IMG/VR virus record: IMGVR_UViG_3300031414_000007
Span: 1 to 64,000 of that record
Source of the DNA: a virus
Taxonomy: Duplodnaviria; Caudoviricetes
Length of the DNA: 64,000 bases
Direction: 5' to 3' (one strand)
The notes beneath the pieces were generated by a model. It was not told the DNA's origin. It did not search any database and saw only the letters and a list, made by a program, of their open reading frames with translations. Numbering within the stretch: the stretch's first letter is position 1; every line of letters begins with the position of its first letter. A program made the translations under genes and the position numbers. Below, one piece after another: positions 4,871 through 40,976 of the stretch.

Positions 4871-6145
4871 ATGAAAAATCAGGTAAGCAACCTCAAGGCT
4901 GGGTTAGAGCAAGTTAACACACTGTTGACCACGCTCCGTTCAGGAACTAACTTGAAACGCCAGCACGTTGTTGATTCATTAGGTCAGCCTTCCTCAATTT
5001 TAGCTGATCTGACCAAGGCATTAAAGAGTAATACCTACAAATCGTACCCCGATGTACTGCAACTGCGTGACTCTGTACGCGCAACTTGCACCACCTGCCT
5101 CAGCCTGTCAGAACAAGTGGCCGCTAAACGCATCAAGCCACGCGATCTGATGGAAAAGCTCGGTGAGATTGTGAAGTCGTTTCAAGCTGACGTATCGTTA
5201 GCTAAGTCCTGTTTGGGTTATCTGCCTGAGTCTCGCAAAGTCGTAACGCTCGACGATGTGAAGATGAATGCCGACGGTAGCACCGATTTGGATTCATTCC
5301 AGAAAGTTGCGGAAGAGATCTACGAGCAGGAAACGAACGACAAAGCTGTACGCCGTGAGCAACGCGAAGATGCTGCGACTGCTAAAACAAGTCGTGTGCT
5401 CAAGCGTCTCAAGGACACGTATGGCCACAAGGTCCCGAGAACGTTCAAACACGCTATTCAAATAGTTCAACTTCCTGTGATGGCCCGATTTGGTACACTC
5501 GCCATGAGTCCTGAATCGCTTTCTCGCATGGGTTTCAAAATCGAAACTGCCGGTCTCCACTCAACCCCCAGCTCAGACTTAGGCATCATTTTTGAAAACC
5601 AGCTCCTGCTTTTCTTCCGCATGTCCGACGCGAAGGGAATGGCAGAAGAAGCCGTGAAAGATCACAAGATGCTTGATGGTACTCTCGTAGAACGCAAACG
5701 CCTCCAGAAAGAACGCAACGCAGAACGCCGTGACCTCAAGAAGCTCAATCAGCTTTTGGATCAGGCAAAGTCTCTGAAAGCTCGTCGTGCGCTTCGTGAA
5801 CAAATCGCAGAAGCTCAGGAAACGATTGACGAGATCACTGCGAAGCTCGACGCGATGGACAGCAAAGTGCGTGAGAGTAATTCCAAAGAGCGCGTATATC
5901 GCCAGATGAAGACCTCTAGCGATCATGCGATGTTAGACTATCTTAACCCCATTGTCGATATGCTCAACGAGAAGGGTAGTTCCACGCTCGGTCTGTTCAC
6001 CACCATGCCGTTACGCGGTGTGATGAAGGACAGCGATGTGCATTGTGCTTGGCTTATGGAGAAATCAGCTATCAACCTGTTGCTGCGCCACACTGGCGGT
6101 GACATGAAGTTGCAGAACTGGTTCCTGCCTTGGACTAATGGCTAA
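4871..6145 (+). CDS. hypothetical protein with coiled-coil segment
   Basis: 424-aa ORF; charged heptad-like stretch in the C-terminal half. Confidence 0.85.
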   Translation: MKNQVSNLKAGLEQVNTLLTTLRSGTNLKRQHVVDSLGQPSSILADLTKALKSNTYKSYPDVLQLRDSVRATCTTCLSLSEQVAAKRIKPRDLMEKLGEIVKSFQADVSLAKSCLGYLPESRKVVTLDDVKMNADGSTDLDSFQKVAEEIYEQETNDKAVRREQREDAATAKTSRVLKRLKDTYGHKVPRTFKHAIQIVQLPVMARFGTLAMSPESLSRMGFKIETAGLHSTPSSDLGIIFENQLLLFFRMSDAKGMAEEAVKDHKMLDGTLVERKRLQKERNAERRDLKKLNQLLDQAKSLKARRALREQIAEAQETIDEITAKLDAMDSKVRESNSKERVYRQMKTSSDHAMLDYLNPIVDMLNEKGSSTLGLFTTMPLRGVMKDSDVHCAWLMEKSAINLLLRHTGGDMKLQNWFLPWTNG

Positions 6146-19067: not shown

Positions 19068-19610
19068 ATGACGGAAAAGATTACGCAGTTGGAGAAATGG
19101 TTTGACGCGGCGAAAGTCGCGTTTAAGATGGGCACACGCAATCCTGCCGGTGACATTGCTCTCGTACTCAGCATTCACAAGCGTCTGGCAAAGAAGCTGA
19201 ACGATGCCAAAGACGATGCAGAGCGCATCAGTGCGGAACGTGAACTCAACGAGTTTCTTGATGACTTGGCTCAACCGTGTGTTATGTACGAGCTGATTCG
19301 CAAGCGCTTCAACACCGACCTGTACCCCAACATTAAGATTGGTGAAGACGTTAAGATCTATATCGCGCTTATGGCAGAAACACCAGGTAGCGCAGTAATG
19401 GCAATGACGTACCTGTATCTCGCTCGCTGCTATACGCTGCAAGATATGGTAGCGAACTTCCTCCCGAATGGCTATCCTGCCTCTGACGCTCTCGGTCTTA
19501 CGTGGAGCATTCAGAAAGGAAACAGTTCTAGCTTCACTGGAAATCTGGTGGATGATATTGAAACTGTAAATAGCCTGTACAATAAGATGTATAGCTCGGG
19601 AGAGAAGTAA
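19068..19610 (+). CDS. hypothetical protein
   Basis: SD GAGGA; 180 aa. Confidence 0.8.
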   Translation: MTEKITQLEKWFDAAKVAFKMGTRNPAGDIALVLSIHKRLAKKLNDAKDDAERISAERELNEFLDDLAQPCVMYELIRKRFNTDLYPNIKIGEDVKIYIALMAETPGSAVMAMTYLYLARCYTLQDMVANFLPNGYPASDALGLTWSIQKGNSSSFTGNLVDDIETVNSLYNKMYSSGEK

Positions 19611-20203
19611 TGGATTTATCTGCAATCGGTTACGCCCCGAAGCAGTTTCGAGTAATCCCCGTTGAGAAGGGCAATCTCGTTACTGACTTCATTGAAGGTA
19701 AGTTTCGCGTTATTGGCGTTGAATGTAACGCTCGTGGTGCTTACGGTAGTCCTATCCAAAAGAGTATTGCACGTCGCTTCCCCGAAGTTGTGCGCCACGT
19801 CGATTCAATCGACTATGAGCACGAACTGACAATCGGTAAGACGCACATGGTACGTGTTAGCACTCGTCATCGTCGCAATCTGTTTGTGGCTAACATGCAC
19901 ATTGCGCGTGGCTTCGGTCTAGGCCTCAACGGTTCTGCTGAGGGTTTTCACAAGCCCATCAATCGTTTCAGTGAGAAGTTCCTGACGCGAGCTTTTGAGG
20001 ACCTGCTGGAGCAGTGTGCAAAAGAAAACATTGCACCAGACAGGCAGATTGCAATCCAACGTTTCTACGGCGGATTAGGCGGGGTTTCGTGGGAAGAAGT
20101 ATGTGCAGTTCTGGACGCTATCTGCGAGAAGCACCAGTTCAATATGTATGCCTATCTACCACGCAACTACAACACTAACTTTGTGCGGGGCGTCGCTCAA
20201 TAA
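19610..20203 (+). CDS. macrodomain protein (Poa1p/DarG-like fold)
   Basis: KGNLV..IGVECNARGAYGSPIQKSIARRFP; IAIQRFYGGLGGVSWEEV matches macro pattern G-x-G-IA and IGxGLGGLxW. Confidence 0.7.
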   Translation: MDLSAIGYAPKQFRVIPVEKGNLVTDFIEGKFRVIGVECNARGAYGSPIQKSIARRFPEVVRHVDSIDYEHELTIGKTHMVRVSTRHRRNLFVANMHIARGFGLGLNGSAEGFHKPINRFSEKFLTRAFEDLLEQCAKENIAPDRQIAIQRFYGGLGGVSWEEVCAVLDAICEKHQFNMYAYLPRNYNTNFVRGVAQ

Positions 20204-21762: not shown

Positions 21763-22533
21763 ATGAGCAACGTTGATACAACAATGCCTGAAGGTAAGTG
21801 GGAGTTCAATGAGCCGGTTGCTGCTGTGTTTGATAACATGCTGCAAAACTCAATCCCGTCTTATGATCGTATGCGTGACCTGACGTATCGTTTAGGTCGT
21901 CAGTTCGTAACTCCCGGTACTGCTATCGTTGACTTGGGTGCAAGCCTCGGTCGTGCGATTGAGCCGTTCTGCAAAGAGTTCGGTCCGTACAACTATCATC
22001 ACTGCCCGCACTCCGATGACGCAGATAGCGAAACAGGCAATCACTACAGCCTGTATGAGATCGCTCCTGCCATGCGCGAACGCCTGATGACCAACGACGT
22101 ACTGGTTGCTGCTGGTGCCAAGTTGGAACGTGACTCTCTAACTGACGTTGATACGTTCCGCTTTGATGGGCAAGTCGAATGCTCATTGATTCTGTCTGTG
22201 CTTACTCTCCAGTTTACGCCGATTGAACATCGTCAGCACATTCTGGAAAAAGTGTACGACAGCCTGGAGAAAGGCGGCGCGTTCATCCTCGTTGAGAAAG
22301 TACTCGGTGACGATAACTTCCTCGACCGTCTGCTGGTAAGCACGTACTATCAGATGAAAGGCGATAACGGTTACTCTCAGGAAAGCATTGCGACGAAACG
22401 TAAGTCACTTGAAGGCGTACTCGTTCCTGTGAAAGCCGCATGGAACGAAGAACTGCTGCGTAAAGCTGGCTTCGACCGCGTAGAGTGCTTCTACCGTGAC
22501 CTGAACTTCGCAGGTTGGATTGCAATCAAGTAA
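21763..22533 (+). CDS. cmoA: carboxy-S-adenosyl-L-methionine synthase (CmoA-like)
   Basis: WEFNEPVAAVFDNMLQNSIPSY, DLGASLG, LTLQF, GGAFILVEK, NGYSQESIATKRKSLE, KAGF..NF; collinear with CmoA motifs. Confidence 0.9.
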   Translation: MSNVDTTMPEGKWEFNEPVAAVFDNMLQNSIPSYDRMRDLTYRLGRQFVTPGTAIVDLGASLGRAIEPFCKEFGPYNYHHCPHSDDADSETGNHYSLYEIAPAMRERLMTNDVLVAAGAKLERDSLTDVDTFRFDGQVECSLILSVLTLQFTPIEHRQHILEKVYDSLEKGGAFILVEKVLGDDNFLDRLLVSTYYQMKGDNGYSQESIATKRKSLEGVLVPVKAAWNEELLRKAGFDRVECFYRDLNFAGWIAIK

Positions 22534-22537
22534 CCGT

Positions 22538-22566
22538 GTGGGTGGCTTCGGCTGCCCACTGCTTTT
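22538..22566 (+). terminator. intrinsic terminator or attenuating hairpin
   Basis: GTGGGTGGC-TTCG-GCTGCCCAC followed by TGCTTTT. Confidence 0.6.
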
Positions 22567-22578
22567 GAGGGAACAACC

Positions 22579-23445
22579 ATGGCTAATGTACGCCAAGAAC
22601 GCTGCGCACGAATGATACGCGAGTCACTAATCGCAGAAATAAAAAAGGCTCGCTCTAAACGTCCTTACGTCTTCCTCAGTGGTGGCGTAGATTCAAACTG
22701 TATTCTTTTTGCTGCACTGGCTGCTGGTTGCAAGCCAATCACACTGAGCTTCCACATGGAAGGCGTTAACAGTCGTGACTTCCGTGCTGCACAAGCTATC
22801 GCTCAGGAGTTTAATCTTGAGCTGATCGAAGTCGTTCTTCCTAACAGCTATGAGAAGTTGAAGAAAGATGTGCTGCTCATGGCAGAGCGTTATGCCTGCA
22901 TTCAGAAGAACGAATTTGAATGTTCATGGCCGATGCTCTACAGCTTCTTCCACGTCCGCAACCACGCGGCAGAGAATGGCATCAAGAATCCTGTGACGTT
23001 TACAGGACAGGGCGCTGACCTGATGTATCTCAGTAGCAAGAAGGCGAGCATTCACTATAAAGATCGTCCGGACGAATGGCGCAAAGAAGGACGCGCTAAT
23101 CCACATCGTACTCAGGGTCGTATCTTACCTGTGATGGCGCGTGATGCTGGTGTGCGCAACATCAAGCCGTGGGATAGCGAAGAAATCCTGCAGGCGTTTC
23201 TCGGCACAAGCTGGGAAGACGTTAACAAGCCTCGTCAGAAAGAGCCATCCCGTATGGCTTTCGAAGAAGACTTCAAACGTATTCGCGTGTACAACCATCA
23301 GAACTTCCAACTCGGTGACACAGGCATCGCAGAGCATTTTGAAAAGCTGCTGGACGACCCTGAGATGAATCCTGATCTTAAATACAAAAGCGTCGTCGGT
23401 GTTTACGGTGAGCTTGCCCGTAAGTATCAGGGAATCGAATCATGA
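22579..23445 (+). CDS. asparagine-synthetase-like ATP-dependent amide ligase (synthetase domain only)
   Basis: PP-loop FLSGGVDS, DFRAAQAIA, FTGQGADL; no N-terminal Ntn glutaminase domain. Confidence 0.8.
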   Translation: MANVRQERCARMIRESLIAEIKKARSKRPYVFLSGGVDSNCILFAALAAGCKPITLSFHMEGVNSRDFRAAQAIAQEFNLELIEVVLPNSYEKLKKDVLLMAERYACIQKNEFECSWPMLYSFFHVRNHAAENGIKNPVTFTGQGADLMYLSSKKASIHYKDRPDEWRKEGRANPHRTQGRILPVMARDAGVRNIKPWDSEEILQAFLGTSWEDVNKPRQKEPSRMAFEEDFKRIRVYNHQNFQLGDTGIAEHFEKLLDDPEMNPDLKYKSVVGVYGELARKYQGIES

Positions 23446-24053
23446 TTCATATCATTGATGGTGGTGTTGGTTGTGATTACGTTTCTGAAAAGCTGCGTGA
23501 CGCTGGAATCAACTGTCGTACTCATGCGCCAAACAACCCACGCATTCGCGCTGCATACGCACCTTATGCCTCGCTGTCCATGGGCTTTAGCGTAGAAGAA
23601 ATTGAGAAGCATATCGGTAACGTGCTTGGCACATATCGTGGCCTATTTCTGATTAGCAGTTACATAGGCTCGCTGGTGGCACGTAGCATGATTGACCAAT
23701 GCGGCCAAAGCCATAACATCATTTACTGCGATGACTTCAAGTGCGGTTCTCTGCCTGTCGTTGCTTCTTCTATTTCTGTAAACACCTATAAGAAGCAACG
23801 GCAACTCGGACGTATTGCTGGACGCCTCAAACACTTTGACCTTGACCACGAATTTATTATTGCAGATAAGGCAGTGCGATTTGCGGCAGGCTCAGAGTTT
23901 GATGAACACGAAGCGCGTAGCGAACTGAACAACCATGCGAAGTTCCTGTCGAGTCCGTCCATGATTGTTGCAGCACACAAACTCGGTGTGCGTAGCAGCA
24001 TGTATCATAACTATGCAGGGCTGGTGAAAGAGTTCATTGAGAATCGCCAGTAG
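23442..24053 (+). CDS. Asp/Glu racemase-fold-like protein, catalytic Cys motifs not evident
   Basis: N-terminus IHIIDGGVGCDYVSEKL..APYASLS..EEI resembles MurI IGxFDSGVGG..APYGxKSxEEI. Confidence 0.45.
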   Translation: MIHIIDGGVGCDYVSEKLRDAGINCRTHAPNNPRIRAAYAPYASLSMGFSVEEIEKHIGNVLGTYRGLFLISSYIGSLVARSMIDQCGQSHNIIYCDDFKCGSLPVVASSISVNTYKKQRQLGRIAGRLKHFDLDHEFIIADKAVRFAAGSEFDEHEARSELNNHAKFLSSPSMIVAAHKLGVRSSMYHNYAGLVKEFIENRQ

Positions 24054-26364: not shown

Positions 26365-26769
26365 ATGAGACCTGAGACTATTGCTCGTACATATAAAGTC
26401 CCAAGCCAAACTTTGGAGTCCGTTCATAACATCTGTGAACGGCAGGGCGTGAAGCTGTCTGACGTTGTTCGTCGATATATTCAATTCGTCGTTCGCACTC
26501 GCGGCGAGTCTTTGCGTTCAGCGCCTCGTCCTGAGTCGGCTCAGCTTAACGTGCGTATGCCTTTTGACTTGGCGCATTCGTTTAGTCATGTGTGCAAACA
26601 ATCTGGTTCAGGCACCAGCACTACTATGACCAGTTTCCTGAAGGAGATCGTTCAACTCAATCGTATTCCTGATGAACTGTTGCAGGAGACCGAAGAAGAT
26701 GTGCGTGAGTATATCCGCAAAGAACGTGCTCGCCTTGATTTACTGGAAGCTCAATTCGGAAAACAATAA
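26365..26769 (+). CDS. tandem ribbon-helix-helix DNA-binding protein
   Basis: two RHH-like units: RTYKVP..LSDVVRRYI and QLNVRMP..TMTSFLKEIV. Confidence 0.55.
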   Translation: MRPETIARTYKVPSQTLESVHNICERQGVKLSDVVRRYIQFVVRTRGESLRSAPRPESAQLNVRMPFDLAHSFSHVCKQSGSGTSTTMTSFLKEIVQLNRIPDELLQETEEDVREYIRKERARLDLLEAQFGKQ

Positions 26770-27611
26770 TGACAGTAATAAGTCCAATCCGCTATCAGGG
26801 CAATAAGCGAAGTCTTATCCCTCTCATTCTGGAGCACACACCTTCTGTGCAAGATTGTCCACGTATGGTCGATGTGTTTGGAGGCAGCGCTACTGTGTGC
26901 GCTAACATGCCTCAGAAATTTCGTGTCTACAACGAACTGAGTCCGCAGGTATTTGAAATCGTCAAGATGCTTGTCGAACAAGACCCGAAGAAAACATTGG
27001 GTCAAGTCAAGCGTCTGGTAAAACATTGGTGCCTGACAAACAGCAACGAAGAAAACTACGATGCGTTCCGTGAAGTTGTCCAGAAGAAGCGCACGGCTAT
27101 TCTGCATTACGTGGCGCACCGACATGCACACTCGAACATGCTGCGCTTTAATCAGCAGGGTATCTACAACGTGGGCTTTGGTGATCGCGGTCTGATTGGA
27201 AAGTTCGACGAACTGGAAGACGAACTCACTACGTTCCACAGTCACATGCAGGGTGTCCACCTGACGAACATGAAGTATGGTAAGTTGTTGAGCCGTCTTG
27301 GTAGTCAACTGAACTGCAACACGTTCTGCTATTTCGACCCGCCGTATCTTGCCTCAGGTGCTATGCAGTATGGAAAGTGGACAGAAGCGAACGAGCGCAA
27401 CCTGCTGGCAACGCTTGAGCAATTGAATCGTTTAGGCGTGCCGTGGATGTTGAGCAACGTTACTGAACATCGACACTTCTCAAACGACTTGTTGAAGCGT
27501 TGGCTAAAGAAACATGCAACGACTGTGCTCTATCCAAACAAAAGCTATGCGATGAACAACGGCCAGAGCGGCTCGCACGGTACCGTTGAAATTCTGGCAA
27601 TGAACTACTGA
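26769..27611 (+). CDS. Dam-family (D12 class) N6-adenine DNA methyltransferase
   Basis: SPIRYQGNK, DVFGGSATV, YFDPPY, WMLSN. Confidence 0.88.
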   Translation: MTVISPIRYQGNKRSLIPLILEHTPSVQDCPRMVDVFGGSATVCANMPQKFRVYNELSPQVFEIVKMLVEQDPKKTLGQVKRLVKHWCLTNSNEENYDAFREVVQKKRTAILHYVAHRHAHSNMLRFNQQGIYNVGFGDRGLIGKFDELEDELTTFHSHMQGVHLTNMKYGKLLSRLGSQLNCNTFCYFDPPYLASGAMQYGKWTEANERNLLATLEQLNRLGVPWMLSNVTEHRHFSNDLLKRWLKKHATTVLYPNKSYAMNNGQSGSHGTVEILAMNY

Positions 27612-34682: not shown

Positions 34683-35020
34683 CACCAGCAATCCGCTTTA
34701 ACGAGCAGACCTGTGAACTGCTGAAAAAGATCTTCGGCAACAACAAGCCCTTCTTTGTTGTGCGCCGCGACACAATCATCGAAAACGATAAGCAGTTCGG
34801 TGAGCGTGTGTATCTGGCCAATGGCACGCATGTCATTACCGTGCCTAACGTACAGGGCCTCGATCTCGGAGATAAGCTCTATCTCGCAGAAGACAATGAG
34901 GTGTACGAGTGGCATCCTCATTTCGACCGCCCCAAATACGAAGCAAGCAACAATCAAAAGGAAGCTCTCGCTTTTGGTCTTCATCCTATCGTCCATCATA
35001 AAGACAGCCGGAACTCTTAA
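34679..35020 (+). CDS. hypothetical protein
   Basis: coupled overlaps on both sides. Confidence 0.7.
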   Translation: MTPAIRFNEQTCELLKKIFGNNKPFFVVRRDTIIENDKQFGERVYLANGTHVITVPNVQGLDLGDKLYLAEDNEVYEWHPHFDRPKYEASNNQKEALAFGLHPIVHHKDSRNS

Positions 35021-36123
35021 TGAACAATCAACCTCTCGATCTGCGCGATCCCAATCAGTACGAACTGTATTCTCTGCATTGCGTGGATGAACAGTACATC
35101 AATCTCGGCAATGCAATTCTGATGCACGGTACTGACGAAACAGATCCCGGTCGTACCGAAGACACGTGGCGCACTCTGATCGGTATTGGCTTTCAATTGA
35201 CCAACACGCTGATCGCTTTCCCTGCGTTGCTATCTGCGCGTAAGAACTGGTTCGCAGCCGTTGATGAAATGTGCTGGATGGCTCGCGGTGAAACAAATAT
35301 CGGCAGTCTCAATTCCAAAATCTGGAACGAGTGGGCGGACGAAGATGGCGAGTGCGGTCCTATCTACGGTCTGATGTGGCGCATGTGGCCTGATATCAAA
35401 ACCTTCCCGACTATTGAGTCGATGAAGGAGCGTCAGATTAGCGATGCTGAAATCGAGCGTATCTCCAAAGAGATCAATCGCATGAAGGCCGCTGGTTACA
35501 CTGAAACGGAAATGGCTGACGGCCGTGTGTGCTACGAAGGTACAATCGATCAGTTTGCTGATGCTCTGCGTCAGGTAATGAATCGCAGTCGCTCACGTCG
35601 CATCCGTGTTCAGGCATACAATCCAGCGTATCTCAACATGCAGGGTCTGCCGCCGTGCCACACTGAGTTTGAGTTCAATGTGACTAAGCCTACGCTGTAT
35701 GAAACGGCTCAGATGGAAGCACGTCAGATGGCGCCTGCCGAAGACTCGCTGCACATCACGGTGACCATGCGTTCCAACGACACGCTTCTGGGCAGACCGT
35801 TCAACATCATCGGCTACAGCGCCATGCACCAAATGATCGCGAAGTGGGCAGGCATGAACGTCGGCAGCTTTACGCTGAATACTACCAACACGCATCTGTA
35901 CACTCACCACTTCGAAGCGTTCAAAAAGCAAAGTGAGCAGTGGGCAGTTCTCGCAGACAACATGAAACGCACTGGCGAACCTGTTGTCTATCCTATGCTG
36001 GAAATCAGCGACGACATTCTTGGCCTGACGCCGGAAGAGTTGCTTGATAACGCCAATGCTGAATGGTTCCAGCTTCTCGATTATGCACCAGCACAGGCAG
36101 TCAAAGGACGGGTCACCAAGTGA
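35020..36123 (+). CDS. thyA: thymidylate synthase
   Basis: IWNEWADEDG..GPIYG, SRRI, LPPCH (catalytic Cys), RSND..LG.PFN (dUMP-type Asn). Confidence 0.93.
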   Translation: MNNQPLDLRDPNQYELYSLHCVDEQYINLGNAILMHGTDETDPGRTEDTWRTLIGIGFQLTNTLIAFPALLSARKNWFAAVDEMCWMARGETNIGSLNSKIWNEWADEDGECGPIYGLMWRMWPDIKTFPTIESMKERQISDAEIERISKEINRMKAAGYTETEMADGRVCYEGTIDQFADALRQVMNRSRSRRIRVQAYNPAYLNMQGLPPCHTEFEFNVTKPTLYETAQMEARQMAPAEDSLHITVTMRSNDTLLGRPFNIIGYSAMHQMIAKWAGMNVGSFTLNTTNTHLYTHHFEAFKKQSEQWAVLADNMKRTGEPVVYPMLEISDDILGLTPEELLDNANAEWFQLLDYAPAQAVKGRVTK

Positions 36124-38134: not shown

Positions 38135-38845
38135 ATGGCAAAAACTGCTATCAAAACAAAGGACGGAAAGAAGAAAAAGAATGATGGGCTAAAGTTTGAG
38201 TTGAATAAACTCAGCTCCGTCAATCAATTAAAAGGCGCAGCGTATAACCCGCGTTTCATTTCAGACAGTCGCCTGAAAGCACTCGAAGGTTCTTTGGGTA
38301 GCTTCGGCGACTTGTCTGGTATCGTGTTCAACAACAACATCAAATCTGGTGTGTTGATCTCAGGCCACCAGCGCTTGAAGTCAATCGAAGGCTGGAAGAC
38401 TCGTATCGAGGTCCAGAAGTCTGTTGATAAGCACGGCACTATCGGCCTGGGTTATATTCACGCAACGCATCCGAAGAAGTCTGATAAGGTGATCAGCATT
38501 CCTCTGCGTATCGTGAACTGGACCGATAAGAAAGCAGAGTACGCTGCAAACATCGCGGCGAACGCCCACGGCGGTGAGTTCGATAACAAGAAACTCGCCA
38601 AGCTGGTTGAGCAACTCGACCTCAACACAATCAAGCCGCAGTTGCTTGGCCTTGACCCGTTAGAGATTCGCGGTCTGCAAGCCAAGCTGAAAGTTCAGGC
38701 TGTTGTTCAGGACGAGAAACGTGCGGGCAAGACAACTGGCCAGATGAACGGCAGTACCGGTAAGTTCAATGAGTACAACCCTGATGATGTGGGTGAAGCT
38801 CTGAACTGCACCTGCCCGCGTTGTGGATTCAAGTTCGAGGGATAA
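38135..38845 (+). CDS. ParB/Srx-like N-terminal domain protein with C-terminal Zn ribbon
   Basis: AAYNPRFIS..SLGSFG..IVFN..LISGHQRLK; CTCPRCGFKF. Confidence 0.8.
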   Translation: MAKTAIKTKDGKKKKNDGLKFELNKLSSVNQLKGAAYNPRFISDSRLKALEGSLGSFGDLSGIVFNNNIKSGVLISGHQRLKSIEGWKTRIEVQKSVDKHGTIGLGYIHATHPKKSDKVISIPLRIVNWTDKKAEYAANIAANAHGGEFDNKKLAKLVEQLDLNTIKPQLLGLDPLEIRGLQAKLKVQAVVQDEKRAGKTTGQMNGSTGKFNEYNPDDVGEALNCTCPRCGFKFEG

Positions 38846-38846
38846 T

Positions 38847-40976
38847 ATGATCATCAAGCCGCCTACGATGAAGGAAATCAACAAGCTGGATAAACCCTGG
38901 CGTGGTATGAGTTTCTTCGCAGGTTGCGGTGGGTCTTCGACCGGTCACAAGATGGCCGGTATCGACATTGTGTTGAGCAACGAGTTTGTTGACTCAGCAC
39001 GAGAGTCCTACGAAGCGAACCATCCGACAACTAAAGTGCTGCCTCATGACATTCGCCGCTTAGACCCAGGCAAGCTGTTGCGCTTCGCTGGTCTAAACAA
39101 AGGCGAACTGGATTTACTTGACGGTAGTCCTCCTTGCTTTACCGAAGACACGATCATTCATACAGCAGACGGCATGAAGTTCATTTCGGACATGAACGTC
39201 GGCGATAGAGCAATGACCAGTGTCGGGCAGTATCATCCCGTGTACGACACGATGGTGCGACCTTACGTCGGCACGATGCACAAAATCGAAACACTGATCA
39301 GTAGCAACAAAGCAACGCCTGAGCACCCGTTCTTTATCAGACGTCCACTTGCTGCGGGCGGTTACTCTGAACCATTCTGGTGTGATGCTAAAGACGTGCA
39401 GGAAGGCGATCTGCTCGGTACACCTCGTGTTACGCCTGACCAGACTGCTGATGTGTACCACAATCAGATGAATCAATTGCCGAAGATGATTCGTCAGTGG
39501 GTAAGCATTCCTGAGTTCTGGTGGATGGTAGGTCACTGGTGTGATCGTGGTTCAATCGAAACTATCGGTGGCATTGAAGCAGTTAGCTTCGAATCGCATA
39601 CCAGTATTGAAAACGCGATGATTGAGCAGGCGTTTGACGCGCTTAAACTCAGTAGCCTGAATCGCATCGAAACAATGACAGCGCAACGTAAAACGTTCCG
39701 TACTGTGATTGATGTTGAGCTGGTGCAGTTTCTGCGTCGCTTTATCAGTCACGGCAACAACACGTTCTCTCGTCGTCTGCCTGCCATGTTGTTCCACATC
39801 AACGCGGAACTGAAACAGCAATTCATTCTGGGCTGTGCTGGCATGGATTATGTGACTGCTATGGGCACAGGCATTGCTATCACTTCTGCAAGCAAGCGCT
39901 TCCTGCTTGAACTGAATTACCTGTGCTGCTCTGCATTCAATCGTCCTCTGTTCGACGGACTGACTTGGGGCGACCTGTATTTCGGTAGTTCGTTAACGCC
40001 CCGCGAACGAAACAGTGCGCGTGAGCACATTGGCTACCTGTTCCTGCAGGACGAGCACAACTTCTTCCACGAGTTTAGCAAAGAAGACCCGCATCTCTGG
40101 ACAGAAGTGATTGAGAACCTCGCGTATCAAGCAACCTGTGACGTCTATAACTTCTCTGTTGAAGTGGACGAAACGTATGTGGCGAACGGTGTTGTTGTTC
40201 ACAACTGCAAAGGCTTCTCTACTGCTGGCGTGAAAGAAGAAGGCTGGGGCAAAGAAGTTAAGTACAGCGATAACAAGTATCAGCAGGTTGATGACCTGTT
40301 CGATCAGTACTGCCGTATGCTGAAAGGCATGATGCCGAAAGTGTTCACTGCGGAAAACGTTAGTGGTCTTGTTAAGGGTGCCTCGAAAGGCTACTTCCTT
40401 GAGATCATGCGAACGTTTGACGAGATTGGTTATTACGTTCGAGCGCCGCTGCTTAATGCTGCGTGGCTTGGTGTGCCTCAGTCCCGTGAACGTATCATCT
40501 TTATGGGTGTACGCAAAGACGTAGCACACGCTCTCGGTTATAAGAGCAATCAGGCTGCTGTGCCTGACGTAGTGCCCTGCGATACGATGGCCTTCCTTGC
40601 AGACGCACTGCCTCACATTCAGCGATATAAGTCCACGAAGAAGGATATCATCACGTATCTTCCTGCGATGAACGGACCGATGCCGACAATCACTGCGGCT
40701 GATGCTATCGCGTATGAGACAGCCCGTTTCTCGTCTGCTGGGTTCGTTGAAGACAACAAAGGTCATCGTCGTAAGTTGACCATCGACGAACTAAAAGTTG
40801 TTTCTGGCCTGCCGTCAGACTATAAGCTGAAAGGTAAGTTTGAAGAACAGTGGGAGCGACTCGGTCGTATCTGTGTTCCGGCAATGACACAGGCTGCGTC
40901 GAAAGCTCTTATCGAACACGTCCTGCTGCCTTATGCTAAGAAGCGTAAGAAGAAGCCTGGCGAAATCTTTAAGTAA
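38847..40976 (+). CDS. DNA cytosine-C5 methyltransferase-family enzyme, intein-containing; predicted carboxymethyltransferase
   Basis: motif I FFAGCGG, IV GSPP|C, VI ENV, VIII QSRER; motif X reads LGRICVP instead of GN(S/A)V. Confidence 0.88.
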   Translation: MIIKPPTMKEINKLDKPWRGMSFFAGCGGSSTGHKMAGIDIVLSNEFVDSARESYEANHPTTKVLPHDIRRLDPGKLLRFAGLNKGELDLLDGSPPCFTEDTIIHTADGMKFISDMNVGDRAMTSVGQYHPVYDTMVRPYVGTMHKIETLISSNKATPEHPFFIRRPLAAGGYSEPFWCDAKDVQEGDLLGTPRVTPDQTADVYHNQMNQLPKMIRQWVSIPEFWWMVGHWCDRGSIETIGGIEAVSFESHTSIENAMIEQAFDALKLSSLNRIETMTAQRKTFRTVIDVELVQFLRRFISHGNNTFSRRLPAMLFHINAELKQQFILGCAGMDYVTAMGTGIAITSASKRFLLELNYLCCSAFNRPLFDGLTWGDLYFGSSLTPRERNSAREHIGYLFLQDEHNFFHEFSKEDPHLWTEVIENLAYQATCDVYNFSVEVDETYVANGVVVHNCKGFSTAGVKEEGWGKEVKYSDNKYQQVDDLFDQYCRMLKGMMPKVFTAENVSGLVKGASKGYFLEIMRTFDEIGYYVRAPLLNAAWLGVPQSRERIIFMGVRKDVAHALGYKSNQAAVPDVVPCDTMAFLADALPHIQRYKSTKKDIITYLPAMNGPMPTITAADAIAYETARFSSAGFVEDNKGHRRKLTIDELKVVSGLPSDYKLKGKFEEQWERLGRICVPAMTQAASKALIEHVLLPYAKKRKKKPGEIFK
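39135..40205 (+). mobile_element. intein (357 aa) with degenerate LAGLIDADG-type region
   Basis: begins CFTEDT, has ATPEHPF block B and ends VYNFSVEVDETYVANGVVVHN followed by Cys. Confidence 0.93.

Follow-up and report, generated by a model that had tools for sequence, protein, structure and literature searches.

The stretch of phage DNA analysed here (the window; 64,000 nt, positions 1 to 64,000 of IMG/VR record IMGVR_UViG_3300031414_000007) is part of the genome of an Erwinia/Dickeya jumbo phage of the Alexandravirus type. It carries three consecutive genes, coding for a homologue of CmoA, an amide ligase homologue of the CmoY family and an orphan protein with a predicted racemase fold (ORF3), and, at a second locus, a ParB-like gene followed by an intein-containing cytosine-C5 methyltransferase gene of the CmoX type (Table 1). 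The first three open reading frames lie on the + strand exactly where the first-pass annotation had placed them. Their description as an operon stands as far as the consecutive order of the genes is concerned, but it is weakened by a terminator-like hairpin with a UUCG loop between the first two of them (9 pairs, 6/9 G-C, in a consensus scan), while the shared gene direction says little, because all genes in this part of the genome are on the + strand.

Table 1. Features of the two loci, with positions in the 64,000-nt window.
Feature	Position	Strand	Basis
cmoA homologue, predicted carboxy-SAM synthase, 256 aa	21763..22533	+	TIGR00740, 4GEK, phrog_4752
Terminator-like hairpin, UUCG loop, T-rich tail, between cmoA and ligase gene	22538..22559	+	consensus scan
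CmoY-family ATP-dependent amide ligase (predicted), 288 aa, PP-loop only	22579..23445	+	Asn_synthase, SpCmoY homology
ORF3, orphan, 203 aa, Asp/Glu-racemase fold (predicted), Ser/Ser replacing Cys dyad	23442..24053	+	AF2, Foldseek, VIA-align
ParB-like (putatively ParBc-type) protein, gene immediately 5' of CmoX	38135..38845	+	phrog_620, phrog_498
CmoX precursor, predicted DNA cytosine-C5 carboxymethyltransferase with intein	38847..40976	+	DNA_methylase, 8YF3, Intein_splicing/Hint
CmoX N-extein	38847-39134		
CmoX intein	39135-40205		
CmoX C-extein	40206-40973		

The first gene had been proposed to encode a full CmoA homologue that keeps the arginine implicated in carboxy-SAM (Cx-SAM) binding, and both points are borne out. 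Its product matches the TIGR00740 model along its whole length (E 1.9e-40 in an NCBIfam profile search), phrog_4752 (E 9e-80), E. coli CmoA (PDB 4GEK, E 1.4e-29), and the biochemically validated SpCmoA of Synechococcus phage S-B43 (30% identity, E 8e-27). Its TIGR00740 score of 139.1 bits lies below the equivalog cut-off of the model (193.3), but SpCmoA itself reaches only 115.6 bits, which indicates that the model holds phage CmoAs to too high a cut-off; the CmoA of Pseudomonas jumbo phage PaBG scores 130.5 bits. Arg213, in the stretch 'ATKRKSLEG', aligns gap-free to residue 213 of the 4GEK chain, that is, native Arg199, the chain numbering being shifted by a 14-residue tag; in E. coli CmoA this Arg contacts the carboxylate of Cx-SAM. 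The active SpCmoA has a Glu at the BLAST-aligned position, and an Arg199 equivalent may not necessarily be universal among CmoAs. The phage protein thus has the CmoA fold, the Arg199 equivalent and the predicted product in common with the E. coli CmoA/CmoB pathway for tRNA cmo5U34, but compared with E. coli CmoA it carries some 25 additional residues, inserted around positions 67-110. The pathways also differ in their acceptor enzymes: the phage record has no CmoB, and a homologue of DNA C5-methyltransferases is predicted to act in its place. A CmoB-like gene, already noted as missing from the window, was found nowhere in the whole 210-kb record.

The second gene was likewise read correctly as a synthetase domain devoid of glutaminase. 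The Pfam model Asn_synthase (4e-9) covers residues 25-235 of the 288-aa product, leaving 24 residues ahead of the domain and hence no room for a glutaminase domain, and a weaker match is found to QueC (1.9e-5); the motifs VFLSGGVDS (residues 31-39) and FTGQGAD are both present. SpCmoY, a proven glycine ligase of 271 aa, is similarly described as a short, domain-only enzyme without an amidase domain (PMC12783734). The two proteins are 35% identical over 240 aa (E 7e-39), and the residues that are invariant between them and in all other ligase types include SxGxD, K110, E114, C115, D147, R168, N216, P218, Q220 and K221; the C-terminal blocks NKPxQK...AF and HxNxQLG of SpCmoY are also kept. The sequence network of the same study uses a threshold of 1e-56, at which the pair, with its E of 7e-39, would form no direct edge, so that homology is no guide to the amine. 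Judged by its sequence, the ligase belongs to a lineage separate from SpCmoY. As the cassette holds no amine-biosynthesis gene, glycine or some other common alpha-amino acid is the likeliest amine for it to join.

At 38.8 kb, the methyltransferase that the first-pass annotation had invoked is indeed present, and it has an arginine in motif X. Its motif X 'ERLGRICVP' aligns with 'ERVGRMVPP' of SpCmoX, and the Arg of the GR pair corresponds to SpCmoX Arg350, which replaces the canonical motif X Asn and binds the carboxymethyl group; candidate CmoX proteins were defined by an equivalent of this residue together with an SPPC motif (PMC12783734). The precursor, which is the sole C5-methyltransferase of the 210-kb record, matches the Pfam models DNA_methylase (PF00145, 6e-38) and Intein_splicing/Hint. 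Its N-extein is 55% identical to residues 22-98 of SpCmoX and its C-extein is 30% identical to SpCmoX; a PDB search with the latter returned SpCmoX first (8YF3, E 1.4e-32), followed by M.HaeIII (3.2e-11). The intein, 357 aa in length, is inserted between the Pro and the catalytic Cys of SPPC (motif IV), with the boundaries GSPP/CFTEDT...VVVHN/CKGFSTAG, and the catalytic Cys is thus its +1 residue. Since motif IV is broken exactly at this Cys, and since the two loci lie 15 kb apart, the whole module could be regarded as decayed, with a CmoX killed by the insertion in its catalytic loop, and CmoA and the ligase as relics. We consider this very improbable, as the intein retains Cys1, the TxxH block (TPEH), the terminal His-Asn and the +1 Cys, the signature residues are kept in all three enzymes, and the 709-aa frame recurs, open throughout and with 54-99% identity, in about 50 phage records from Erwinia, Dickeya and Yersinia, a pattern that fits a splicing-competent intein under selection.

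The ParB-like protein encoded directly upstream matches phrog_620 (E 3.2e-32) and phrog_498 (E 5.9e-19), and has no Pfam match at E<=1. It is 30-38% identical to the CmoX-adjacent products of two metagenome contigs (L015 and L017), which do match ParB_N (PF02195). ParBc genes accompany CmoX in 1660 contigs (PMC12783734).

These genes are best compared with a system already described. Yang et al. (Nat Commun 2025; PMC12783734) established that CmoA, CmoX and CmoY make 5-carboxymethylcytosine (5cxmC), then 5-glycyl-cxmC, and, for the homologues from Synechococcus phage S-B43, detected 5cxmdC (m/z 286.1) and 5gcxmdC (m/z 343.1) in both recombinant and native DNA; on expression in E. coli, Cx-SAM came from the bacterium's own CmoA. 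This is the cyanophage route through CmoA, CmoX and an amide ligase that had been half remembered in the first-pass annotation. In our judgement, the window probably holds a split copy of this system, and its chemistry may be outlined from homology, signature residues and the co-occurrence of the genes as follows. CmoA would turn SAM and host prephenate into carboxy-SAM; excision of the intein would restore the SPPC-KGFS catalytic loop of a ParB-associated CmoX, and the spliced enzyme would use Cx-SAM to form 5-carboxymethylcytosine at presumed target sequences in the phage DNA; the glutaminase-less PP-loop ligase would then adenylate the 5cxmC carboxyl group and join an amine to it; and the resulting amide-decorated cytosine would shield the DNA from host nucleases. 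The core of this pathway, from Cx-SAM to cytosine carboxymethylation and amidation, had been put forward from the letters of the DNA, and each of its steps is backed by S-B43 homology. Its reading was right, but its novelty is gone with the publication of the S-B43 gene set in December 2025: the product cannot be called new to this set of enzymes, as CmoA, CmoX and a glutaminase-less ligase already give 5-glycylcarboxymethylcytosine (PMC12783734).

The two systems share the same three enzyme families and, probably, a ParBc-type neighbour, but they differ in architecture and setting. The three genes of S-B43 overlap, whereas those of the window are split between two loci; the CmoX of the window contains an intein, and a racemase-fold gene is added after its ligase; and the phage is a jumbo myovirus type of about 260 kb whose host is an enterobacterial plant pathogen. 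Compact operons with homologues of all four genes (ParB, CmoX, CmoA and ligase) are found elsewhere and lend further support to the core pathway: in the unrelated contigs L015 and L017, a ParB, a CmoX with SPPC and GR, a CmoA and a ligase lie within 4-5 kb, and these proteins are 35-47% identical to the four of the window. Another example is PaBG (Baikalvirus), which belongs to the same jumbo-phage lineage and has a ligase 42.5% identical to that of the window and a CmoX 47% identical to the C-extein of the window. In this phage, in contrast to the window, ParB, CmoX, CmoA, a gene of 150 aa and the ligase form one contiguous block, and CmoX is intein-free; the PaBG genome paper gives no DNA-modification data. 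Among phage records bearing the ligase, all 47 from Erwinia, 2 from Dickeya and 1 from Yersinia also have CmoX.

Would a role in RNA metabolism or host takeover account equally well for these genes? CmoA might boost cmo5U34 in host tRNAs through the host CmoB, or drain SAM against defences, while the ligase would act on another carboxylate (peptide or metabolite). Both RefSeq and PHROG name cmoA a 'tRNA methyltransferase', and SAM depletion was raised as a possible side effect in the S-B43 study (PMC12783734), although such an effect on the SAM pool is compatible with a role in DNA modification. Related ligases also occur in one Salmonella and one Staphylococcus phage in which a CmoX search (E<=1e-20) was empty, and the ligase family may not be limited to 5cxmC DNA. 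We nevertheless hold this explanation to be very improbable: the 210-kb record lacks not only CmoB but also tRNA genes (0 found), the only C5-methyltransferase of the phage has the Cx-SAM arginine and is most like SpCmoX, and single operons elsewhere unite homologues of CmoA, CmoX and the ligase. The DNA hypermodification pathway thus appears the better reading, even when the points that count against it are added up, namely the distance between cmoA/ligase and ParB/CmoX, a CmoA below the equivalog cut-off, a ligase with only 35% identity to SpCmoY, a CmoX dependent on predicted splicing, a putative terminator between cmoA and the ligase gene, and the existence of phages with the ligase and no CmoX.

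As a consequence for annotation, the closest RefSeq record can be corrected; it gives cmoA as a tRNA methyltransferase and lists hypothetical proteins for the ligase, ORF3 and CmoX. Alexandravirus-type phages of fire-blight and soft-rot bacteria, which are in development as biocontrol agents, are predicted to carry amide-hypermodified cytosines, and these bases, if present, would have to be reckoned with in restriction mapping and nanopore basecalling, and would bear on how well the phages resist host defences.

The third gene, ORF3, is more enigmatic. Its ATG overlaps the ligase stop codon by 4 nt (ATGA), and its product has no Pfam, PHROG or NCBIfam match; Pfam searches, PF01177 included, were empty at E<=10 for 16/16 members of its family, a PDB profile search at E<=10 returned no racemase, and a word search of 5.8 billion proteins gave nothing informative. 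An exhaustive HMM search of 1.8 billion proteins retrieved 5 representatives, all in one phage clade. The MurI-like N-terminus noticed at first reading is nevertheless recovered, as hhalign pairs IHIIDGGVGCDYV of ORF3 with VLVFDSGVGGLSV of E. coli MurI (18 N-terminal residues aligned, probability 2.7%), with an hhhhD-G-x-G motif common to both. The racemase-fold call is borne out by structure prediction: a first AF2 run with 12 close homologues (pLDDT 44) was discarded, and the final model, for which four relatives of 26-51% identity were added, reached a pLDDT of 92.3 and a pTM of 0.88. With this model, the top 49 Foldseek matches in the PDB are all glutamate, aspartate or allantoin racemases (E 4e-5, TM about 0.6), and VIA-align superposes it on glutamate racemases with Z 13.7-14.6 over about 181 residues (rmsd 3.5 A at Z 14.6). 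A small alpha/beta hydrolase, suggested by an ESM Atlas feature search (0.90-0.94), was rejected, as racemases alone head the lists of both structural aligners and the family conserves no catalytic His.

As a whole, ORF3 is thus folded, according to the model, like MurI and the Asp/Glu/hydantoin racemase superfamily (3HFR, 1ZUW, 2JFN), with two pseudo-symmetric alpha/beta domains. It differs from these proteins by the lack of the last 40 or so residues, of a PF01177 match and of any invariant Cys. In the 16-member family, Cys is invariant at no position, while S73 and S171 are invariant; ORF3 reads 'LISSYIGS' where racemases have 'VACNTAS', and distant members read 'LGSS' in place of 'LGCTH'. 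Racemases of this superfamily have their catalytic Cys dyad (or Thr/Cys) one residue after a strand in each domain. In the model, Ser73 and Ser171 would sit at the two post-strand positions of this pair, a mapping drawn from topology and local motifs rather than from residue-level structural superposition. The sequence-only alignment with E. coli MurI extends no further than the first 80 residues or so, and later segments have negative scores, so that the placement of S171 relies on topology and the 'LGSS' motif. Residues invariant down to 26% identity are D6, S73, D142, S171 and Y191, where strands of the model end C-terminally, and R66, just before strand 3.

ORF3 might be a working part of the pathway, whose task would be to bind, supply or tailor the arm contributed by the amino acid, for instance by acting on the residue once it is amide-linked, so that the phage would make a base other than 5gcxmC. 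The start/stop overlap with the ligase gene, the position of ORF3 at the 3' edge of a variable cassette wherever it is present, and its invariant D6, R66, S73, D142, S171 and Y191, which in the model resemble a conserved ligand cleft, are in line with this idea, as is the presence of enzymes of amino-acid stereochemistry (alanine racemase, DgcN-like) in the cassettes of sister phages. There is also a precedent in the Asp/Glu-racemase family, in which OpaE acts on amide-linked residues in larger scaffolds (PMC12661438). The same enzyme provides a counter-argument, as its Cys-to-Ser mutants keep 4.8% or <=0.3% of activity, that is, a loss of 95% to >99.7% (PMC12661438), and ORF3 has no Cys dyad. 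Genomic distribution argues in the same direction: SNUABM_7-like phages and Yoloswag keep cmoA, a ligase and CmoX and have no ORF3, which is also absent from S-B43, L015 and L017, and undetectable in PaBG. Moreover, ORF3 is 75-85% identical across relatives while the adjacent ligase falls to 25%, and it belongs to a block 94% DNA-identical to SNUABM_32, downstream of the point of exchange. A role in the pathway is thus possible but rather doubtful, and the earlier, narrower proposal that ORF3 holds the amine for the ligase is not supported, given its absence from sister phages and compact modules that have the pathway genes, and its conservation next to ligases of exchanged type. A complex prediction for the ligase and ORF3 scored 0.01, a result that says nothing either way about binding. 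Sister phages with the same pathway do without ORF3, and the likeliest view of it is that of an optional accessory that either binds a ligand or catalyses a reaction other than racemisation. PaBG gp305, a protein of 203 aa encoded after the PaBG ligase gene, was considered as a remote ORF3 homologue and set aside, as the similarity is not significant.

The variable cassette itself is delimited by comparison with sister phages, in which DNA homology breaks off with the stop codon of cmoA and is found again from ORF3 onwards. At this locus pEa_SNUABM_30 is 97% identical to the window. Other ligase types are found in relatives between these points, with DgcN-like, alanine-racemase or oxygenase genes, and three arrangements can be told apart: the ligase alone (type A), the ligase with a DgcN-like gene, with or without an alanine racemase and a protein of 420 aa of no known function (type B), and the ligase with a small gene and a 2OG oxygenase (type C). 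AD1 and SNUABM_32 have a ligase of type B, and Y3 one of type C. It is tempting to see there a plug-in slot for whole 'amine cassettes', through which related Erwinia jumbo phages would make different 5cxmC amides, with ORF3 as a new reader or tailoring enzyme of the amino-acid arm on DNA; as a whole, we judge this proposal unlikely. Related phages that differ at the swap slot form a ready-made panel in which the amines attached by uncharacterised CmoY lineages could be sought, a question left open in PMC12783734. The 5' edge of the slot is marked by the putative terminator hairpin that follows cmoA.

In Synechococcus phage S-B43, CmoA produces carboxy-SAM (Cx-SAM), CmoX makes 5-carboxymethylcytosine (5cxmC) in DNA, and CmoY joins glycine to this base with ATP, native S-B43 DNA containing 5-glycyl-cxmC (Yang et al., Nat Commun, Dec 2025, PMC12783734). 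On contigs bearing CmoX, the same study counted 4,257 genes for CmoA and 2,251 for the ligase, some ligase clusters having unknown amines. Judged by homology, the genes of the window are another instance of this CmoA-CmoX-CmoY system. The route predicted by the first-pass annotation, from Cx-SAM through carboxymethylcytosine to an amide, relies on the same enzyme families and was right in outline, and the three ORFs lie exactly where it had placed them; since the S-B43 system is already published, its view that this enzyme combination was undescribed has to be abandoned.

Features of the window, by position
Feature	Position	Length	Remarks
Macro-domain-like gene	19610-20203		phrog_335, E 1e-27
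Gene 1, cmoA homologue	21763-22533	256 aa	
Terminator-like hairpin	22538-22559		
Gene 2, CmoY-family ligase	22579-23445	288 aa	
Gene 3, ORF3	23442-24053	203 aa	4-nt overlap with ligase stop codon
D12-class N6-adenine DNA methyltransferase	26769-27611		Pfam E 1e-24
Thymidylate-synthase homologue	35020-36123	367 aa	Pfam E 1.2e-54
ParB-like gene	38135-38845		directly upstream of CmoX; phrog_620, E 3e-32
CmoX homologue	38847-40976		sole C5-methyltransferase of the 210.5-kb record
Intein within CmoX gene	39135-40205	357 aa	Cys1, TPEH block, terminal His-Asn

Gene 1 is a CmoA homologue by sequence, matching both the CmoA equivalog model TIGR00740 (E 1.9e-40) and E. coli CmoA (PDB 4GEK, E 1.4e-29). 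Its TIGR00740 score of 139 bits is below the NCBIfam cut-off of 193 bits, but SpCmoA of S-B43, biochemically shown to make Cx-SAM, reaches just 115.6 bits. In a gap-free alignment, Arg213 of gene 1 (ATKRKSLEG) corresponds to 4GEK chain residue 213, the native Arg199. This Arg (KRK/KRS) is common to gene 1 and E. coli CmoA, whereas in a BLAST alignment to gene 1 the experimentally active SpCmoA (5339-6034 of its source DNA, L004) has a Glu (KEK) at the position; the use of Arg199 as a criterion, as in the first-pass annotation, may thus fail for some active CmoAs, to the extent that this alignment is correct.

Gene 2 is assigned to the CmoY ligase family from its similarity to the asparagine-synthase-like gene of S-B43 (SpCmoY; 35% identity, E 7e-39), its PP-loop (VFLSGGVDS), and about two dozen invariant residues common to SpCmoY and every ligase type seen in this clade of phages. 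Its Asn_synthase domain spans residues 25-235 (Pfam), leaving no space for a glutaminase domain, and SpCmoY (271 aa) has likewise been described as an ATP-binding domain alone (PMC12783734).

The CmoX homologue is interrupted by an intein (GSPP|CFTEDT...VVVHN|CKGFSTAG) whose insertion point immediately precedes the motif IV catalytic Cys; this methyltransferase nucleophile is therefore also the intein +1 residue. Among solved structures, the C-extein is far closer to SpCmoX (8YF3, E 1.4e-32) than to M.HaeIII (3e-11), and the N-extein shows 55% identity over SpCmoX residues 22-98. The Arg of motif X (ERLGRICVP) aligns to SpCmoX Arg350, which touches the carboxymethyl group of Cx-SAM (PMC12783734); the protein therefore carries both features, SPPC and the motif X Arg, by which 5,615 candidate CmoX sequences were gathered (PMC12783734). 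About 50 records of phages of Erwinia, Dickeya and Yersinia retain the intein-bearing form, while CmoX of S-B43 and of the Pseudomonas jumbo phage PaBG has no intein. The adjacent ParB-like gene resembles the ParBc association reported by the same authors (PMC12783734). The thymidylate-synthase homologue 3 kb upstream of the ParB/CmoX pair extends about 100 residues beyond the 266-position profile and may be either an ordinary ThyA or an enzyme of the pyrimidine hydroxymethylase type.

Joint action of the cmoA/ligase and ParB/CmoX loci is independently supported by gene order: PaBG, which belongs distantly to the same jumbo lineage, groups ParB-CmoX-CmoA-x-ligase in one block, and on two metagenome contigs (L015 and L017) genes for ParB, CmoX (with SPPC and GR), CmoA and the ligase all fall within a few kb, their products being 35-47% identical to the four window proteins. 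A tRNA role for the pathway is a weak alternative, as neither a CmoB, which the first-pass annotation had not recognised in the window either, nor a tRNA gene was found in the 210.5-kb record (~79% complete).

The window derives from a jumbo phage of Alexandravirus type. Its 2.3-kb three-gene stretch shares 96.7% DNA identity with Erwinia phage pEa_SNUABM_30, and 76-80% with further jumbo phages of Erwinia and Dickeya. The gap separating cmoA from the ligase gene holds a G+C-rich hairpin capped by a UUCG tetraloop, with TGCTTTTGAG after it. Since this hairpin is terminator-like, cmoA, the ligase gene and ORF3 may not be transcribed simply as a single unit. The macro-domain-like gene is found three genes ahead of cmoA in each of the relatives, where its annotation is O-acetyl-ADP-ribose deacetylase or Appr-1-p processing protein. 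The D12-class methyltransferase gene, kept in all relatives, is a further DNA modification gene close to the cmoA locus, independent of the pathway above.

What remains of interest is the slot at which ligases are swapped and the racemase-fold orphan ORF3 with its Ser/Ser pair. ORF3 overlaps the ligase gene translationally and always borders the cassette on its 3' side, as a pathway component might be, but it holds 75-85% identity in phages whose ligase falls to 25%. DNA homology to the related phages AD1 and SNUABM_32 breaks off exactly at the stop codon of cmoA (22533) and restarts at 23448 (83-94% identity), six bases into ORF3, so that ORF3 goes along with the downstream backbone rather than the ligase. 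Moreover, SNUABM_7-like phages and Yoloswag keep cmoA, ligase and CmoX and have no ORF3, and the gene is absent from S-B43, L015 and L017 and undetectable in PaBG. Membership of ORF3 in the pathway is accordingly unlikely, and its proposed role as a partner holding the amine for the ligase finds no support in these phages.

The racemase-fold call itself was correct. ORF3 has no match in Pfam, PHROG or NCBIfam, and its family counts 5 representatives among 1.8 billion proteins, all of this phage clade. For its AlphaFold2 model (16-sequence alignment; pLDDT 92.3, pTM 0.88), the top 49 Foldseek matches in the PDB are racemases acting on glutamate, aspartate or allantoin (best E 4e-5, TM ~0.6), AlphaFold DB clusters give the same assignment, and VIA-align confirms the predicted fold (Z 14.6, rmsd 3.5 Å, 181/203 residues). 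The catalytic signature of the racemase family is nevertheless absent: the 16-sequence alignment contains no invariant Cys. From topology and local motifs, invariant Ser73 after strand 3 (LISSYIGS versus MurI VACNTAS) and Ser171 after strand 7 (LGSS in distant members versus MurI LGCTH) would occupy the catalytic Cys positions. In OpaE, of the same family, C90S retains 4.8% activity, against at most 0.3% for C199S and for the double mutant (PMC12661438), so it is very improbable that ORF3 works as a classical two-thiol racemase. In the model, the ends of strands carry conserved residues (D6, S73, D142, S171, Y191), which together with conserved R66 suggest a functional cleft.

The ligase gene forms a sharply bounded swapped cassette (22534-23447) in comparison with six related DNAs (L001, L002, L003, L006, L013 and L014), and SNUABM_5 has cmoA and ligase, but not ORF3, in common with the window; such mosaicism implies recombination among co-circulating jumbo phages. 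The ligase we call type A stands alone in the window phage, SNUABM_2/35/36/39 and SNUABM_5. Type B is accompanied in AD1 by a DgcN-like DUF1611 protein (NF041892, E 6e-84), in SNUABM_32 additionally by an unknown 420-aa protein and a homologue of alanine racemase, and type C, in Y3 and Yoloswag, by a small gene and a 2OG-Fe(II) oxygenase. These companions, and an aminotransferase, are candidates to make or tailor the attached amine. This variety agrees with the alternative amines expected by Yang et al. (PMC12783734), and suggests that sister phages may attach different amides. The window cassette has no amine-making gene, and the simplest guess for its amine is an abundant metabolite such as glycine. 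Genes travelling with other ligases lie at L001:3016-4071, L002:3011-6236, L003:4377-5233 and L016:5842-6939 of other DNAs, and on one metagenome contig a class-V aminotransferase follows the ligase.
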